Origin: Rickettsiales bacterium
GTDB taxonomy: Bacteria > Pseudomonadota > Alphaproteobacteria > Rickettsiales > UBA998
DNA length: 64,000 bases
Direction of reading: 5' to 3'
Assembly (NCBI GenBank): GCA_046348685.1
Contig: JAXMDT010000006.1
Coordinates: forward strand, 2,395 to 66,394
Made by a program: the position numbers and the translations under genes. The stretch's first letter is position 1; each line of letters begins with the position of its first letter. Of this stretch, positions 23,631 through 58,762 are shown one piece after another. The notes beneath the pieces were generated by a model. That model did no database searches, was not told where the DNA came from, and worked only from the letters and a program-made list of their open reading frames with translations.

Positions 23631-23717
23631 GTCATCCTGAGCGTAGCGAAGGATCTAGATTCTTCGCCTTCGGCTCAGAATGACAATAACTGGATTCCAG
23701 CTTTCGCTGGAATGACG
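23631..23717. repeat. two family C hairpins between etfB and etfA
   Basis: They are gtcatcctgagcgtagcgaaggatctagattcttcgccttcggctcagaatgaca (23631-23685) and ctggattccagctttcgctggaatgacg (23690-23717, the 'WIPAFAGMT' unit). Confidence 0.8.
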
Positions 23718-24650: not shown

Positions 24651-24678
24651 CGTGGATCCCGGCCTTCGCCGGGATGAC
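24651..24678. repeat. family C hairpin (CGTGGATCCCGGCCTTCGCCGGGATGAC)
   Basis: The unit is near-identical to the copy at 58764-58791. Confidence 0.8.
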
Positions 24679-24698
24679 CACATCAATTAAAAAATTTA

Positions 24699-27400: not shown

Positions 27401-28744
27401 ATGACCCAAAAAATTAAAGTCCGTTTTGCCCCATCCCCTACGGGATATCTCCATGTCGGTAACGTGCGCACGGCGCTCGTCAATTGGCTGTTCGTGAAAA
27501 AACACGGCGGCACGTTTTTGCTGCGCATCGATGATACGGATATGGAACGCTCCAGGGTGGAGTATGAGGAAGCCATCGCCGAAGACCTCACCTGGCTCGG
27601 ACTAAACTGGGATGAGGGTGCAAAGCAATCCGACCGCATGAACCGCTATGAACTCGCCAAGCAAAAGCTGGTGGATTCGGGAAGGCTTTATCCTTGCTAC
27701 GAAACGCAGGAAGAACTGGACGTGCGCCGCAAGCTCCAGGTCTCGCGCGGCAAGCCGCCGATCTACGACCGCGCCGCGCTGGAAATGACCGACGAGCAGA
27801 AGCAAAAATACGAAGCGGAAGGCAGAAAACCGCACTGGCGCTTCAAGCTGGAAAATAAAAGCATCGTCTGGGACGACATGGTGCGCGGCAAGTGTGAGTT
27901 TCACGGTACGCATGTGAGCGATCCGGTGCTGGTGCGCGAAGACGGCGTGCCGCTTTATACGCTTTCTTCCGTCGTCGATGACGGCGAGATGAATATCACG
28001 CATATCATTCGTGGTGAAGACCATGTGAGCAATTCGGCCGTGCAGGTGCAGCTGTTTGAGGCGCTTGGATTCGCCGTGCCGCAGATGGCGCATATCGCGC
28101 TGCTCAAAATGAAAGACGGAGAACTTTCCAAACGCAAAGGCGGCGGCGACATTCGCTCCATGCGCGCCAAGGGCATTTTCCCGATGGCGATCAATTCGCT
28201 GCTCGCGGCGATCGGAACATCCGATGCGGTGGAATTGGCGCCGTCGCTGGATGTGCTGGCGGACAAGTTCGACTTCAAAAAATTCGGCCGCGCCGTTGCG
28301 CAATATGATGAAGACGAACTGCTCCGCCTCAATACGAAATTGCTGCATTCGCTTTCTTACGCAGAGGTGCATGACAAGCTCGAAGCACTGGACCTGCATC
28401 ATATTCCTGAAAATTTCTGGCTCGCCATCCGCGAGAACCTGACGACGCTGCCGGAAGCGAAAGTCTGGTGGGAACTCGTGCAATTGCCGCTGACGCCGGT
28501 GATCCAGGATGCGGATTATCTTTCCAAAGCAGCAGAACTGCTGCCGAGCGGCGAGTGGGATGCAACGACGTGGAAGAGTTTCACGGAAGCCGTGAAAAAC
28601 GCCACCGGTCGCAAGGGAAAAGATCTTTTCATGCCTCTGCGACTTGCGCTGACGGCACGCGAAGACGGCCCTGACCTCAGCAAAGTCTTCCAGCTACTCG
28701 GGCGCGAAAAAGCTGAACAACGGATGCTGGGTAAAGCGGCATAA
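27401..28744 (+). CDS. gltX: glutamate--tRNA ligase
   Basis: RFAPSPTGYLHVGNVRTAL contains the HIGH motif. ELSKRKG is the KMSKS-like motif. Confidence 0.95.
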   Translation: MTQKIKVRFAPSPTGYLHVGNVRTALVNWLFVKKHGGTFLLRIDDTDMERSRVEYEEAIAEDLTWLGLNWDEGAKQSDRMNRYELAKQKLVDSGRLYPCYETQEELDVRRKLQVSRGKPPIYDRAALEMTDEQKQKYEAEGRKPHWRFKLENKSIVWDDMVRGKCEFHGTHVSDPVLVREDGVPLYTLSSVVDDGEMNITHIIRGEDHVSNSAVQVQLFEALGFAVPQMAHIALLKMKDGELSKRKGGGDIRSMRAKGIFPMAINSLLAAIGTSDAVELAPSLDVLADKFDFKKFGRAVAQYDEDELLRLNTKLLHSLSYAEVHDKLEALDLHHIPENFWLAIRENLTTLPEAKVWWELVQLPLTPVIQDADYLSKAAELLPSGEWDATTWKSFTEAVKNATGRKGKDLFMPLRLALTAREDGPDLSKVFQLLGREKAEQRMLGKAA

Positions 28745-28747
28745 ACT

Positions 28748-28840
28748 GAATTCCAGATTGCGATGCCTTCGGCATCTTGTCTGGAATGACAATTATAAAA
28801 TGTTAGTGTATGCGTCATTCCAGCGAAAGCTGGAATCCAG
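28748..28840. repeat. family C hairpins upstream of GIY-YIG gene 1
   Basis: They are gaattccagattgcgatgccttcggcatcttgtctggaatgac (28748-28790) and cgtcattccagcgaaagctggaatccag (28813-28840). Confidence 0.8.
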
Positions 28841-28849
28841 GTCTTAATC

Positions 28850-29137
28850 ATGCAGCAGTCATATGTTTATATCATGGCTAGCAAGCGAAATGGGACGCTT
28901 TATATCGGCGTTACATCCAATCTTACTCAGCGAGTCTATCAGCATAAAGAAGGTTTGGCTGATGGCTTCACCAAAAAGTATAATATCAAACTGCTGGTTT
29001 ATTATGAAATTCACGAAGAAATAGAGCAAGCTATCCTCCGGGAGACACAGATGAAGGCATGGCAGCGAAAATGGAAGCTGGAATTGATAGAAAAGTTCAA
29101 TCCGGACTGGAAAGATTTATATGAAACCATTATTTAG
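28850..29137 (+). CDS. GIY-YIG nuclease family protein (UPF0213/COG2827-like)
   Basis: YVYIMASKRNGTLYIGVTSNLTQRVYQHKEG...KLLVYYE...A..RE.Q.K.W.R.WK is present. The ORF is 95 aa. Confidence 0.9.
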   Translation: MQQSYVYIMASKRNGTLYIGVTSNLTQRVYQHKEGLADGFTKKYNIKLLVYYEIHEEIEQAILRETQMKAWQRKWKLELIEKFNPDWKDLYETII

Positions 29138-29220
29138 TCTGGATTCCAGCTTTCGCCGCCGCCACGGTGGCTGGAATGACGACCTAACTCTACTGGATTC
29201 CAGCTTTCGCTGGAATGACG
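29138..29220. repeat. family C hairpins downstream of GIY-YIG gene 1
   Basis: tctggattccagctttcgccgccgccacggtggctggaatgacg (29138-29181) and ctggattccagctttcgctggaatgacg (29192-29220) are inverted relative to 28813-28840. Confidence 0.8.
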
Positions 29221-29227
29221 TTTTTAA

Positions 29228-30802
29228 ATGACCATCTCCCTCTATAACACGCTCACCCGCCAGAAAGACGCCCTTGTTCCTGAGAATGAGAAGAATGTCC
29301 GCATGTATGTGTGCGGGCCGACGGTGTATGACCGGGCGCATCTGGGTAATGCGCGCTCGGTGGTGGTGTATGATGTGCTCTACCGGCTGCTGCGGCATGT
29401 GTACGGCGAAAAGCAGGTTACCTATGTGCGCAACATCACCGATGTCGATGACAAGATCAACAAGGCCGCCGTTGAGCGCGGCATCACGATTCAACAGCTG
29501 ACGCAGGAAGTCACCGGCTGGTTCCATGCCGATATGGAAGCGCTGAATTGCTTAGAGTTGCCGGAAAAAAATCAGCCGCGTGCAACACAGTATATTAAAC
29601 AAATGATCAAGATGATCGAAAGCCTGATTGCGAATGGCAATGCTTACGTGGCCGAAGGGCATGTTTTGTTTGATGTAAACACCTCCCCCAGTAGGGGGGA
29701 GGATGGGAGGGGGGCGTTGGATGCTCAGAGTTCCCAAAGCCCCCACCCTAACCTTTCCCCTACTGGGGTGGGAAATTGGTATTATGGCATGCTTTCGGGA
29801 CGTTCGCTGGATGATCTGATTGCCGGGGCGCGGGTGGAAGTTGCGCCGTACAAGAAAAGTCCCGGTGATTTTGTGCTGTGGAAACCCGCAGCGGCGACCG
29901 ACGATGCATCGAGCAAATTTGAATCCCCCTGGGGAGTAGGGCGTCCCGGCTGGCATATCGAATGCTCGGCGATGGCGACGGAACTTCTCGGCGATACTTT
30001 CGATATACATGGCGGCGGCGCGGATTTGATGTTCCCGCACCATGAGAACGAAATCGCGCAGGCCTGCGCCGCCAATCCCGGATCACGCTTCGCGAAGATG
30101 TGGGTGCATAACGGATTCCTCACCGTGCATGGCGAGAAGATGAGCAAATCGCTCGGCAATTTCATCACCGTGCGCGATTTGCTGGATAAGGGCGTGCATG
30201 GCGAAGTGATCCGCTTCGCGCTGCTCTCAACGCATTACCGCAAACCGCTCGACTGGACGGACAAGCTGGTTGAAGAAGCTTTTTTTGATCTCAAGTATTT
30301 TGCTCAATATCTATGGCAGAATCAGGGTTTTAAATTTGATAAATTTGAAAAAGAATGGAAAACATTTTCACGCGAACCTGAAGCACAAATTTATCTTTCA
30401 AGATTTTACGAGAGCTTAGAAAGCGATCTCAACTTTAGTGTTGCAAAAACTGTTATTTACGATGTTATTGATGAAATTAAAAAACATGTTTTTAATTTAG
30501 AAGATAAAGAAGACAATCAAGAAAATGAAAAAAACTATTTCATTTATCGTTCAACATTACGGGAAATGTGTGAATTTCTGGGATTATGTACTGTCAACTT
30601 TGTTGAGTGGCAAAAGCAGGAAGAAGCCAACAAAAATAGCGGTAGCGATGTAGAAGCGATTCAAAATCGCATCGGAGCGCGGAAAGCAGCTAAGCTTGCC
30701 AAGAACTGGGCGGAGGCAGACCGCATACGCGATGAACTAAAAGCCGAGGGCATCCTGCTCGAAGACAAGCCGGGTGATGTGACGGAGTGGAGAAGGCTTT
30801 AA
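29228..30802 (+). CDS. cysS: cysteine--tRNA ligase
   Basis: [18 protein letters not shown] contains the HIGH motif and KMSKSLGN is present. At 524 aa it is longer than usual because of a ~30-codon repeat insertion. It contains a strongly AT-rich internal segment. Confidence 0.95.
29682..29775. repeat. family A ('GEG-type') MITE-like element in frame in cysS
   Basis: cctcccccagtaggggggaggatgggagggggg...cccccaccctaacctttcccctactggggtgggaaa encodes [31 protein letters not shown], between FDV and YGMLSG. Confidence 0.75.
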
Positions 30803-31698
30803 TGGCTAGCCTTCTTGAATACTTCTACAATGATTTTTGGCGATATAGAGCGTATGGATCAAATTGGCCTTTAGCCCTCTTTTTAGGTGAAAAATATCCT
30901 TCACCTAGTTTATCAGGGTCAAGCTTTTTAGGGTTACCAGAATTACAAGAGCACAGCTTTTTATATGCTCATAGATACGACGAAGCTACCCGAAGCTTTC
31001 CATTAATTTTCTATATTCCAGCAATTGAAGAACATGAGATTCTAATTATAAGAATATTAGAAAACCTACATTACTTCTTAGATCATGGACTTCTAAAAAC
31101 AGGCCCTATATTCAATGAAAAAATACTAAATGAAGAGTTGGATTTTAGCGGAACAATATATTTTTATTCAGAAAATATTATCGGCGTTGAAACGCAAAAG
31201 AAACTGGAAGAATATGCGGGTTTACGAATTATAATTAGAGAAAAACTTTACGCTGAAGAAAAATCTAAAGTTGAAAAACCAGTTGCATTTATTTCCTATG
31301 ATAATCGCGATAAAGAAGTTGCTGAGCAGATAGTCTTTGGACTCCAAAAAATGAATTTTCCTGCACCAATATGGTTTGATCAATATTCCCTTAAGTGGGG
31401 CAATAATATGAGAAAGACTATTGAAGATGGCTTAAAAAGATCAAAAAAATGCATAGTTGTTCTATCTCAAAATTATATGGAAAACAGAAGCTGGGCTGCA
31501 GAAGAATTTGAAAGCGCCTACCAAAAAGGTTTGCACGAAAAAGAAGATATTTTTCTTCCGATATGGAAAGGCGTTACAGAAAAAGAAGTTTATGAATTTT
31601 CACCTAAGCTTAAAAATGTAAAAGGCATTATTTGGAGCGAAGATAATAAAGATAAAAATATGCGTAACGTATTCGATGTTCTAAAAGAGTTACTATGA
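30802..31698 (+). CDS. TIR-domain protein with an uncharacterised ~165-aa N-terminal domain
   Basis: The C-terminal TIR pattern is VAFISYDNRDKEVAE...IWFDQYSLKWG...KKCIVVLSQNYMENRSWAAEEFE...IFLPIW. The gene is strongly AT-rich. Its start overlaps the cysS stop (TAATG); a GTG at 30787 is an alternative start. Its stop overlaps the next start (ATGA). Confidence 0.8.
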   Translation: MASLLEYFYNDFWRYRAYGSNWPLALFLGEKYPSPSLSGSSFLGLPELQEHSFLYAHRYDEATRSFPLIFYIPAIEEHEILIIRILENLHYFLDHGLLKTGPIFNEKILNEELDFSGTIYFYSENIIGVETQKKLEEYAGLRIIIREKLYAEEKSKVEKPVAFISYDNRDKEVAEQIVFGLQKMNFPAPIWFDQYSLKWGNNMRKTIEDGLKRSKKCIVVLSQNYMENRSWAAEEFESAYQKGLHEKEDIFLPIWKGVTEKEVYEFSPKLKNVKGIIWSEDNKDKNMRNVFDVLKELL

Positions 31699-32371: not shown

Positions 32372-32420
32372 ACTGGATTCCAGCTGTAGTTTATCCCGGC
32401 GAAGGCCGGGACGGGAACGA
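32372..32420. repeat. family C composite hairpin
   Basis: The sequence is actggattccagctgtagtttatcccggcgaaggccgggacgggaacga. Confidence 0.6.
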
Positions 32421-49517: not shown

Positions 49518-49604
49518 TGTCATTCCGGTATAGACCGTTATTCACGATTTTTTCTGGAACTAGAAATTAAGTAAGCCGTAGACCCCGGTCTGCGCCGAGG
49601 TGAT
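49518..49604. repeat. degenerate family C hairpins
   Basis: They are gtgtcattccggtatagaccg...tctggaac and ccgtagaccccggtctgcgccgaggtgat. Confidence 0.5.
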
Positions 49605-58293: not shown

Positions 58294-58345
58294 TTCATGG
58301 ATCTAATCCTTTTCCTCCATTTCCTCATTTGGCTTGCGGTTAGAG

Positions 58346-58433
58346 GTCATCCCGGCGAAGGCCGGGATCCACGAATTACTTTTTCCTCGACGCTTATATA
58401 ATAAGACGTAGACCCGGCCTACGCCGGGGTGAC
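58346..58433. repeat. family C hairpins upstream of GIY-YIG gene 2
   Basis: They are gtcatcccggcgaaggccgggatccacg (58346-58373) and cgtagacccggcctacgccggggtgac (58407-58433). Confidence 0.8.
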
Positions 58434-58477: not shown

Positions 58478-58762
58478 ATGCCTTACTGGGTTTACATCGT
58501 CACCAATAAGCCGAATGGCATTCTGTATATTGGGGTGACGAATGATATTGCACGGCGAAGTTATGAGCATCGTGAAGGGCTCATTGAAGGCTTTACGAAA
58601 AAATATGGTCTGAAAATGCTTGTTTATGCAGAAGAATATGCCACGATTGAAGAAGCGATTCATCGTGAGAAGTGCATGAAAGAATGGAAGCGTGCATGGA
58701 AAATCAGGCGTATTTTAGAGGCAAATCCTGATTGGCATGACTTATTTGAAATCTTAGTGTAA
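58478..58762 (+). CDS. GIY-YIG nuclease family protein (second copy)
   Basis: YWVYIVTNKPNGILYIGVTNDIARRSYEHREG...KMLVYAE...REK.MKEWKRAWK is present. The ORF is 94 aa and is a clear paralogue of 28850-29137. Confidence 0.9.
   Translation: MPYWVYIVTNKPNGILYIGVTNDIARRSYEHREGLIEGFTKKYGLKMLVYAEEYATIEEAIHREKCMKEWKRAWKIRRILEANPDWHDLFEILV

Follow-up and report, generated by a model that had tools for sequence, protein, structure and literature searches.

A 95-aa GIY-YIG nuclease is encoded between gltX and cysS of a Rickettsiales bacterium, in a spacer occupied by inverted hairpins, which raises the question of whether gene and hairpins belong together and, if so, what kind of unit they form. An earlier note on this DNA had proposed a minimal cassette, that is, a nuclease with its cognate hairpin ends. 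The window, i.e., the whole 64,000-nt stretch of DNA analyzed here, comes from the 1.97-Mb, 22-contig assembly GCA_046348685.1 (hereafter, G000). The nuclease gene is denoted P1 and the hairpin variety found around it subtype A; the relevant features are as follows.

23690–23717, minus strand: dispersed subtype A unit, gene-less, adjoining another CGTC-type hairpin at 23660–23686
27401–28744, plus strand: gltX, the left neighbor, with a C-terminus that aligns with those of relatives
28746–28790, minus strand: long-loop variant of subtype A, with an ATTCCAGA stem and a nested 6-bp hairpin, 2 nt past the gltX stop codon
28813–28840, plus strand: upstream subtype A hairpin, CGTCATTCCAGCGAAAGCTGGAATCCAG, head pointing away from P1, 9 nt before the ATG
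28850–29137, plus strand: ssn paralog P1, an open reading frame for a 95-aa single-domain GIY-YIG protein (Pfam PF01541) assigned to the Ssn family
29139–29181, minus strand: subtype A unit in which 15 nt are inserted between loop and 5′ stem arm, 1 nt past the ssn stop codon
29193–29220, minus strand: downstream subtype A hairpin, a perfect reverse complement of 28813–28840, head pointing away from P1
29228–30802, plus strand: cysS, the right neighbor of the insertion site
32372–32413, strand not assigned: 13-nt left half of the subtype A unit (CTGGATTCCAGCT), followed by a subtype-B-like hairpin, ATCCCGGCGAAGGCCGGGAC

The 483-nt spacer between gltX and cysS thus consists of the P1 gene and four hairpin units, the last of which (29193–29220) stops 7 nt short of the cysS ATG. 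This anatomy agrees closely with what had been read from the letters alone. The open reading frame lies between the two housekeeping genes at the coordinates given for it and matches PF01541; the hairpin described as ending 9 nt upstream of the ATG is CGTCATTCCAGCGAAAGCTGGAATCCAG; the inverse unit noted right after the stop codon is the insertion-bearing copy at 29139–29181; and the inversion of the ‘WIPAFAGMT’ hairpins holds exactly for 29193–29220, the plus strand of which translates as WIPAFAGMT. Two variant units, at 28746–28790 and 29139–29181, are present in addition to the perfect inverted pair. Among the copies claimed elsewhere in the window, the one at 23690–23717 is exact and the one at 49518 is, as described, a heavily degenerate subtype A copy, whereas position 32372 turned out to hold merely the 13-nt half unit. 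Zero matches to the exact subtype A unit are expected in the window, as estimated from 100 shuffles.

The subtype A unit is laid out as a CGTC head, the stem arm ATTCCAGC, a GAAA loop, the complementary arm GCTGGAAT, and a CCAG tail. When folded as single-stranded DNA, the hairpin units of the window form an 8-bp stem with a 4-nt loop (-7.8 kcal/mol, z-scores of -3.2 to -4.8), in which the head CGTC and the tail CCAG are unpaired; the long-loop unit at 28746–28790 reaches -10.8 kcal/mol (z-score of -4.3). Hairpins of this kind are abundant throughout the genome: those anchored on GTCAT number 77, compared to 1–29 for ten control 5-mers, with C preceding GTCAT in 20 of the 27 subtype A copies and T or G occupying this position in subtypes B and C, which are introduced below. 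A covariance model, R1, recovered 62 hairpin matches in G000; the loops of 5 of its 15 seed sequences had been trimmed by hand, and R1 was therefore used for counting alone and not as structural evidence. Although approximately 89% of the genome is coding, 58 of 64 hairpins are located outside long open reading frames. When hairpins are neighbors, 13 of the 18 pairs are arranged in (+,-) orientation with the heads outward, and the inner sequences of the dimers in G000 are all unique. No replication-strand bias was detected, either for all units (26:30) or for singlets (12:16). As a separate observation, hairpin units often directly follow stop codons.

P1 matches the Pfam GIY-YIG profile PF01541 over residues 4–77 (E = 2e-16), and residues Y7, Y18, G20, R28, H32, E65, and N84, invariant in an alignment of 27 homologs, are, judging from that alignment, the canonical GIY-YIG catalytic set. 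The AlphaFold2 model consists of one compact domain with the GIY-YIG fold (pLDDT 95), and the solved structures nearest to it are those of the UPF0213 proteins 1zg2 and 1ywl as well as Slx1. A sequence search of the PDB with P1 yielded a best match with an E value of 0.004 and no solved structure of an Ssn protein. UPF0213/YhbQ and Slx1 share the GIY-YIG fold with P1, but their sequence similarity to it is marginal (E values of 0.004–0.02, 22–25% identity), and we know of no cognate hairpin repeat for UPF0213/YhbQ-type proteins or Slx1. A GIY-YIG homing endonuclease of the I-TevI type was considered and rejected, given that P1 comprises only 95 aa and scores 19 bits against TIGR01453, with a cut-off of 56. 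The size of P1 is under the 150-aa limit of the Ssn family, and the protein contains no added DNA-binding domain. It is 66% identical, over residues 3–95, to a homolog from Uruburuella suis (Neisseriaceae), which serves here as a proxy for comparison with SsnA of Neisseria meningitidis, and 63% identical to a homolog from Ca. Megaera (Rickettsiales); CGTC-type hairpins flank both genes. The exact P1 protein was not found in other assemblies on record.

Two bodies of literature bear on the identity of this locus. The first, from 2025, describes a small GIY-YIG gene partnered with a repeat (Chenal et al., Nat Commun 16:2388; PMC11893778), the Ssn proteins being site-specific nucleases of single-stranded DNA whose genes typically lie between their target hairpins. 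The N. meningitidis nuclease SsnA, a single-domain GIY-YIG protein of 94 aa (cd10448) with the catalytic residues Y6, Y17, and E64, binds the motif NTS, CGTCATTCCCGCGMAVGCGGGAATCYRG, as single-stranded DNA alone, with a Kd in the nanomolar range, and makes its cut a few nucleotides upstream of the motif; it does not bind RNA and is inactive on the reverse strand, double-stranded DNA, and RNA (PMC11893778). [quoted passage not shown] The corresponding motif, SRM, is found nearby in 71% of homologs and on both sides in 42%, and among genomes containing over 200 SRMs, 81% have a gene for a homolog; the authors likened the NTS-ssnA-NTS arrangement to an insertion sequence and to REP/RAYT (PMC11893778). 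The second body of work concerns the CGTC-tagged REPs (Di Nocera, De Gregorio & Rocco, BMC Genomics 2013; PMC3733652), defined by a CGTC or TGTC head, an 8–9-bp stem starting with AT, a 4–5-nt loop, and a CCA tail. These repeats are common in Alphaproteobacteria and intergenic, and they mostly form dimers whose units have opposite orientations; dRS3 of Neisseria and RPE-4/RPE-6 of Rickettsia belong to this class, many members of which were argued to be transcribed (PMC3733652). They “apparently lack a dedicated transposase”, and GIY-YIG proteins are not mentioned in that paper (PMC3733652), which, in turn, is not cited in the 2025 Ssn paper (PMC11893778).

The locus shares several features with the Ssn/SRM system. 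The protein is a single-domain GIY-YIG of about 94 aa, with matching catalytic residues (Y7, Y18, and E65 in P1); a hairpin of about 28 nt, with a CGTC head, an 8-bp stem starting with AT, a 4-nt loop, and a CCAG tail, is inverted about the gene; and the framing motif is dispersed between genes throughout the genome. The unit fits the published SRM pattern (searched as HGTCWYN(0-2)YYVSBRHN(0-5)WNVSBRGN(0-2)RNCYNB), which has 48 matches in the genome compared to 4–11 in ten simulated first-order Markov genomes. Both 28813–28840 and 29193–29220 match this pattern, so that an SRM is present in the 5′ as well as the 3′ flank of P1. Relative to NTS, the stem differs by a compensatory replacement of C-G with A-T at position 6 (TTCCAGC/GCTGGAA in G000 versus TTCCCGC/GCGGGAA). 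Other differences are that G000 carries four paralogs with their own subtypes in 2 Mb, that two of these subtypes, C and D (cognate to paralogs P3 and P4), fall outside the published pattern, and that copy numbers are in the tens rather than hundreds. Subtype A likewise resembles the CGTC-REPs in its head, AT-start 8-bp stem, 4-nt loop, and CCA tail, and the G000 hairpins in general do so in their intergenic position and dimers of opposite orientation with heads outward (13 of 18 neighboring pairs, compared by orientation and not by the “HH” label of that paper); the difference is that the G000 subtypes frame resident nuclease genes, three of them on both sides and subtype D on one side. Thus, the open reading frame at 28850–29137 very probably encodes an Ssn-family nuclease, the cognate motif of which (SRM/NTS, identical with CGTC-tagged REPs) is provided by the hairpins on its flanks and elsewhere in the genome. 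The anatomy of the locus, the pairing of genes with hairpins, the dispersal of the latter, the insertion at the junction, and membership in the family can be read from the sequences themselves. Given that the Ssn/SRM system has already been published, the gltX-cysS locus is a new example of a known system.

The REP/RAYT system offers a further comparison. REPtrons combine GTAG-tagged REPs with IS200/IS605-like Y1 (HUH) transposases. They share with the G000 system a small nuclease gene framed by inverted copies of a dispersed hairpin, repeat families specific to individual paralogs, dimers resembling REPINs, and recognition of the hairpins as single-stranded DNA. However, the head is CGTC in G000 and GTAG in REPs, and the enzyme is a GIY-YIG hydrolase rather than an HUH/tyrosine transposase. 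The Y1 transposase family PF01797 has no member in G000 or in any of eight relatives, whereas control genomes were positive, which rules out a RAYT/IS200 mobilizer in these genomes.

Searching the genome with tblastn revealed four GIY-YIG paralogs, which are 54–61% identical to one another and each of which pairs with its own hairpin subtype.

P1: subtype A, ATTCCAGC-GAAA, about 30 copies, on both sides of the gene
P2: subtype B, ATCCCGGC-GAAG, about 10 copies plus 4 of ATACCGGC, on both sides of the gene
P3: subtype C, ATCCCGCA, about 5 copies, 2 of them framing P3, on both sides of the gene
P4: subtype D, long form ATTCCCYGAATTT...GGGGAAT, about 5 copies, overlapping the stop codon, none upstream

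The second pair also lies within the window.

24652–24679, minus strand: dispersed subtype B copy, gene-less (C6:27050-27072)
58345–58372, plus strand: upstream hairpin of P2, subtype B (GTCATCCCGGCGAAGGCCGGGATCCAC)
58478–58762, plus strand: ssn paralog P2, 94 aa, 54% identical to P1
58765–58792, minus strand: downstream hairpin of P2, subtype B, inverted copy

Hairpins of the own subtype, in inverted orientation, frame three of the four paralogs. Among random 288-nt intervals, 0.016% are flanked by hairpins on both sides, so that the framing of three paralogs out of four corresponds to P of about 2e-11. The genome-wide co-occurrence suggested earlier as a check is therefore found, with hairpins present at all four paralogs; the opposite outcome, GIY-YIG paralogs elsewhere in the genome lacking flanking hairpins, was named in the earlier note as the one that would count against the proposal, and it is not what the genome contains.

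The association extends to relatives and well beyond the order. A small GIY-YIG gene is present in 22 of 41 genomes of the same order, in 0–7 copies per genome, and at least three R1 hairpins were counted in 20 of the 22 genomes that have the gene, as well as in 6 of the remaining 19. Four of these six (G006, G009, G015, and G024) carry 21–115 hairpins with UvrC as the sole GIY-YIG protein; hence, the repeats can persist without the nuclease gene, and a strict dependence of the hairpins on ssn is ruled out. A scan of genomes from 185,579 species yielded 584 relatives of P1. The best 80 of these, 56–70% identical to P1, come from Alpha-, Gamma-, and Deltaproteobacteria, Thermodesulfobacteriota, Chloroflexota, Planctomycetota, Verrucomicrobiota, Nitrospirota, several CPR lineages, Legionella, Francisella, and Rickettsiales, and in almost all of these 80 homologs hairpins with a CGTC or TGTC head adjoin the gene. 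In a survey of 112 homologous loci, taken from relatives and from many phyla, a hairpin was found within 250 nt of the gene in 96, and outward-facing copies were present on both sides in 62. The upstream and downstream stem arms are the same in 31 of these 62 loci (mean of 9.9 and maximum of 16 for shuffled pairings), and protein distance correlates with the distance between hairpin arms (Mantel r = 0.33, a value reached by 0 of 2000 permutations). Taken with the paralog pairing in G000, this survey supports the proposed minimal cassette of a nuclease with cognate hairpin ends. Binding and cleavage of the hairpin in vitro, which the earlier note had also suggested as a check, are on record for SsnA and three further homologs (PMC11893778).

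Does this cassette move? Of 30 relatives, 14 have gltX next to cysS, and the spacers between the two genes, a comparison likewise suggested before, show the following states.

Junction empty, spacer of 1–5 nt: G033, G030, G023
Junction with a short spacer of 73–83 nt: G040, G036
Junction with an ssn cassette: G000, G016, G017, G032, and G007, the latter on a truncated contig
Junction with other small cargo: G034 (a BrnT/BrnA-like pair), G022, G028
Junction with one NTS-type hairpin and no gene: G001

As gltX and cysS are separated by 1–5 nt in G033, G030, and G023, the ssn cassette at this junction represents an insertion. The cassettes occupying the junction differ in their hairpins, with TTCCAGC in G000 and G032, TTGCGAG in G016 and G017, and TCCTCGGG in G007. 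Furthermore, the identity of ssn is discordant, as measured by sequence, with that of host markers: compared to G032, ssn is 67% identical but the gltX C-terminus 41%, and compared to G017, the corresponding values are 62% and 60%.

These data can be accommodated by a selfish reading, in which hairpin-ssn-hairpin is an active IS-like or homing-type element and any host benefit is secondary; Ssn nicks at the outward heads would cause the cassette to be copied or excised, along with the gene-less singlets and dimers, which would be non-autonomous derivatives similar to MITEs or REPINs. The insertion relative to the tight junctions, the alternation of hairpin types at one junction, and the discordance between ssn and host identity all speak for it, as do the presence of homologs 56–70% identical across phyla, the patchy distribution among relatives (0–7 copies), the prevalence of head-outward dimers, and the lack of a Y1 transposase that could mobilize the hairpins. 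In addition, hairpin dimers have a constant spacing in G022 and G010, and in G022 the sequence inside the dimers is conserved as well, in either orientation, a REPIN/MITE-like trait; the IS-like architecture has also been remarked on for SsnA (PMC11893778). Against it stand several observations. The paralogs are merely 54–61% identical, so that a recent duplication of the cassette within G000 is not apparent; among 20 dimers inspected, no consistent direct repeats corresponding to target-site duplications were present at the ends; the inner sequences of the G000 dimers are unique, and those of G022 are unlike the subterminal parts of the ssn cassette of the same genome; and hairpins persist in genomes devoid of ssn. 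Moreover, GIY-YIG nucleases hydrolyze DNA without a covalent intermediate, and, for this reason, such an enzyme cannot rejoin DNA alone. On balance, we consider an active selfish element possible but somewhat doubtful. Two narrower candidates were rejected: a classical insertion sequence or MITE, on account of paralog divergence and the lack of consistent target-site duplications, despite the presence of terminal inverted repeats, and an origin of the dimers by internal deletion of the cassette, in view of the inner sequences in G022 and G000.

Far less probable is the view that the hairpins are mainly RNA-level or structural DNA elements, such as terminators, mRNA stabilizers, or supercoiling sites, and that ssn genes merely happen to reside in repeat-rich spacers. 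The intergenic location of the units, often right after stop codons, would fit such a role, and the unit at 29197–29216 precedes a T-run and scores as terminator-like; many repeats of this type have been argued to be transcribed (PMC3733652), and in four relatives they persist without ssn. Yet this view would leave unexplained why the hairpins around each paralog belong to a rare subtype of its own (2 of the 5 subtype C copies frame P3), why the architecture is conserved across phyla, and why protein and hairpin covary, and it sits poorly with the characterized SsnA, which binds its motif as single-stranded DNA at nanomolar Kd and not as RNA (PMC11893778). A chance meeting of a repeat and a small open reading frame, which the abundance of the repeat alone would favor, is scarcely credible considering that both-sided hairpins occur around 0.016% of random 288-nt intervals but at three of four paralogs, that shuffled windows yield zero expected matches, and that outward-facing hairpins occupy both sides in 62 of 112 homologous loci.

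An Ssn nuclease with its cognate motif thus remains the preferred reading, and its probable mode of action can be outlined by analogy with SsnA. A unit exposed as single-stranded DNA would fold into the 8-bp/4-nt hairpin, which P1 is predicted to bind by reading the stem sequence as well as two unpaired elements, the head CGTC and the tail CCA(G). We infer that P1 would cut the hairpin-bearing strand 5′ of the head, at a distance of a few nucleotides, and leave duplex DNA and RNA untouched. Since both heads of the cassette face outward, the predicted cuts fall just beyond its two ends, with the top strand cleaved on the left and the bottom strand on the right. Together, P1 and its two hairpins form an IS-like cassette that was inserted into an otherwise tight gltX-cysS junction, and the approximately 30 gene-less subtype A copies mark intergenic regions across the chromosome. 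Single-stranded DNA carrying subtype A would then be cut beside the hairpin, be it transforming DNA entering the cell or DNA that repair or recombination has exposed, with four such pairs running in parallel, each nuclease presumably acting with its own subtype. In the host, P1 could serve to restrict incoming single-stranded DNA beside the repeats or to propagate the repeats themselves. The G000 genome encodes ComEC and DprA; however, both are too widespread to be informative on a role in transformation.

How each nuclease might distinguish its hairpin is hinted at by covariation. Every protein column was compared with every arm position in 89 loci with a callable stem arm, and the highest mutual information, 0.83 bits, links residue 70 (P1 numbering) with arm position 6 (0.57 bits for the next pair and a permutation maximum of 0.39), in a sample chosen by similarity to P1 and with a statistic that ignores shared ancestry. 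In P1, this position is preceded by K69, which is invariant, and followed by an aromatic residue, 71, that is nearly so. Lys70 accompanies base-6 C in 38 of 40 CCG arms, Glu70 accompanies base-6 G in 9 of 13 CGG arms, and Ala70 accompanies base-6 A in both CAG arms and is also found with 3 of 5 TGA arms, whereas Phe70 occurs with both TGG arms. The four paralogs of G000 display the combinations Ala/A (P1), Glu/G (P2), Arg/G (P3), and Lys/C (P4). Separately, longer motifs around residues 69–76 were seen to track the hairpin class: proteins with GSRxKK are paired with TTGCGAG hairpins, and those with KYTRxAK are paired with hairpins of the long CCCGAAT class. We regard the covariation between residue 70 and stem base 6 as a sequence-based lead and not a result. 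That the four pairs are mutually orthogonal, with specificity set in part by a contact between position 70 and stem base 6, is a tentative proposal, which we would at present rather bet against than for.

Taken alone, the gltX-cysS locus is one further Ssn/SRM example. The coexistence of four nuclease-hairpin pairs in one genome, the lack of a cassette in some relatives, in which the gltX-cysS junction is tight, the existence of hairpin-rich relatives without ssn, and the covariation of position 70 with stem base 6 are stated in neither PMC3733652 nor PMC11893778. The locus connects the 2013 paper on CGTC-REPs, in which no dedicated enzyme was found (PMC3733652), with the 2025 paper on Ssn nucleases (PMC11893778), and the filled and empty states of a housekeeping junction bear on whether the cassettes move. 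Four pairs in one small genome provide a handy natural set for studying the cross-specificity of enzymes that have been proposed as tools for single-stranded DNA. If position 70 is a direct read-out of the stem, the recognition code of Ssn nucleases would be partly predictable and could be re-programmed. Should the four pairs indeed be orthogonal in this way, the turnover of cassettes at the gltX-cysS junction would reflect competition between mobile pairs, and Ssn would be the long-missing mobilizer of the CGTC-REPs.

In an alignment of 89 loci of ssn, the small GIY-YIG nuclease gene, residue 70 of the protein (numbered as in P1, the paralogue between gltX and cysS) covaries with base 6 of the stem arm of the flanking CGTC-type hairpin, lysine being paired with C, glutamate with G, alanine with A and phenylalanine with TGG. 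When all combinations of protein column and arm position were compared, this pair ranked first.

Several ssn reading frames run into the downstream hairpin, where they stop at the TGA within ...GGATGAC or at a stem codon and thereby acquire short hairpin-encoded protein tails, such as GVDPALNAG or MDPE(T/S)SSG. Frames ending in this way are:
G000 (the genome of the window) C8:47099-47130, paralogue P3
G000 C11:11741-11778, paralogue P4
L015 and L018, two further ssn loci

At the Francisella sp. 19S2-4 locus (L106), the start of a second ssn-like ORF lies some 200 nt beyond the first ORF on its downstream side and is preceded by one more hairpin, of identical subtype; the arrangement looks like tandem cassettes. 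At locus L029, a whole hairpin dimer is located immediately upstream of the ssn gene, and the downstream hairpin is absent. Dimer spacing is constant in two relatives, at about 103-107 bp for G022 (L073-L086) and about 70-80 bp for G010 (L087-L092). The inner sequences of the G022 dimers are conserved and found in both orientations, in which respect they resemble REPINs or MITEs. Hairpins of different subtypes also form a mixed cluster at 23660-23717 of the window, where a subtype A copy (23690-23717) is abutted by:
23660-23686, reverse strand, CGTC-type hairpin of a subtype other than A, GTCATTCTGAGCCGAAGGCGAAGAA

The gltX-cysS junction, occupied by ssn in the window, carries a BrnT/BrnA-like toxin-antitoxin pair in G034 (L052), a 166-aa ORF with a CGTC-hairpin dimer in G022 (L068) and a 206-aa ORF in G028 (L051), and the spacer is 1-5 nt in G033, G030 and G023. 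Across these relatives the junction looks like a hot spot for insertion. Next after cysS is:
30787-31698, AT-rich ORF of 303 aa, overlapping the cysS stop codon

The C-terminal half of its product reads like a putative TIR domain (FISYDNRDKEVAEQIV...WFDQYSL...).

Four relatives (G006, G009, G015 and G024) contain 21-115 CGTC-type hairpins per genome; no small GIY-YIG gene was found in them, UvrC being the sole GIY-YIG protein, and Y1 transposase was absent from those tested. No resident nuclease accompanies these repeat families.

Composite units, in which a conserved insert of 41-46 nt with its own hairpin sits inside a stem of subtype A or of sequence TTCCGGA, are present in G000 at:
C1:41634-41694
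C2:37977-38036
C18:8396-8460
C2:130339, C7:85164 and C13:48775/48856 (further units)

Each composite form has several copies. The repeat evidently takes up a second module in its loop, and the composite spreads afterwards.
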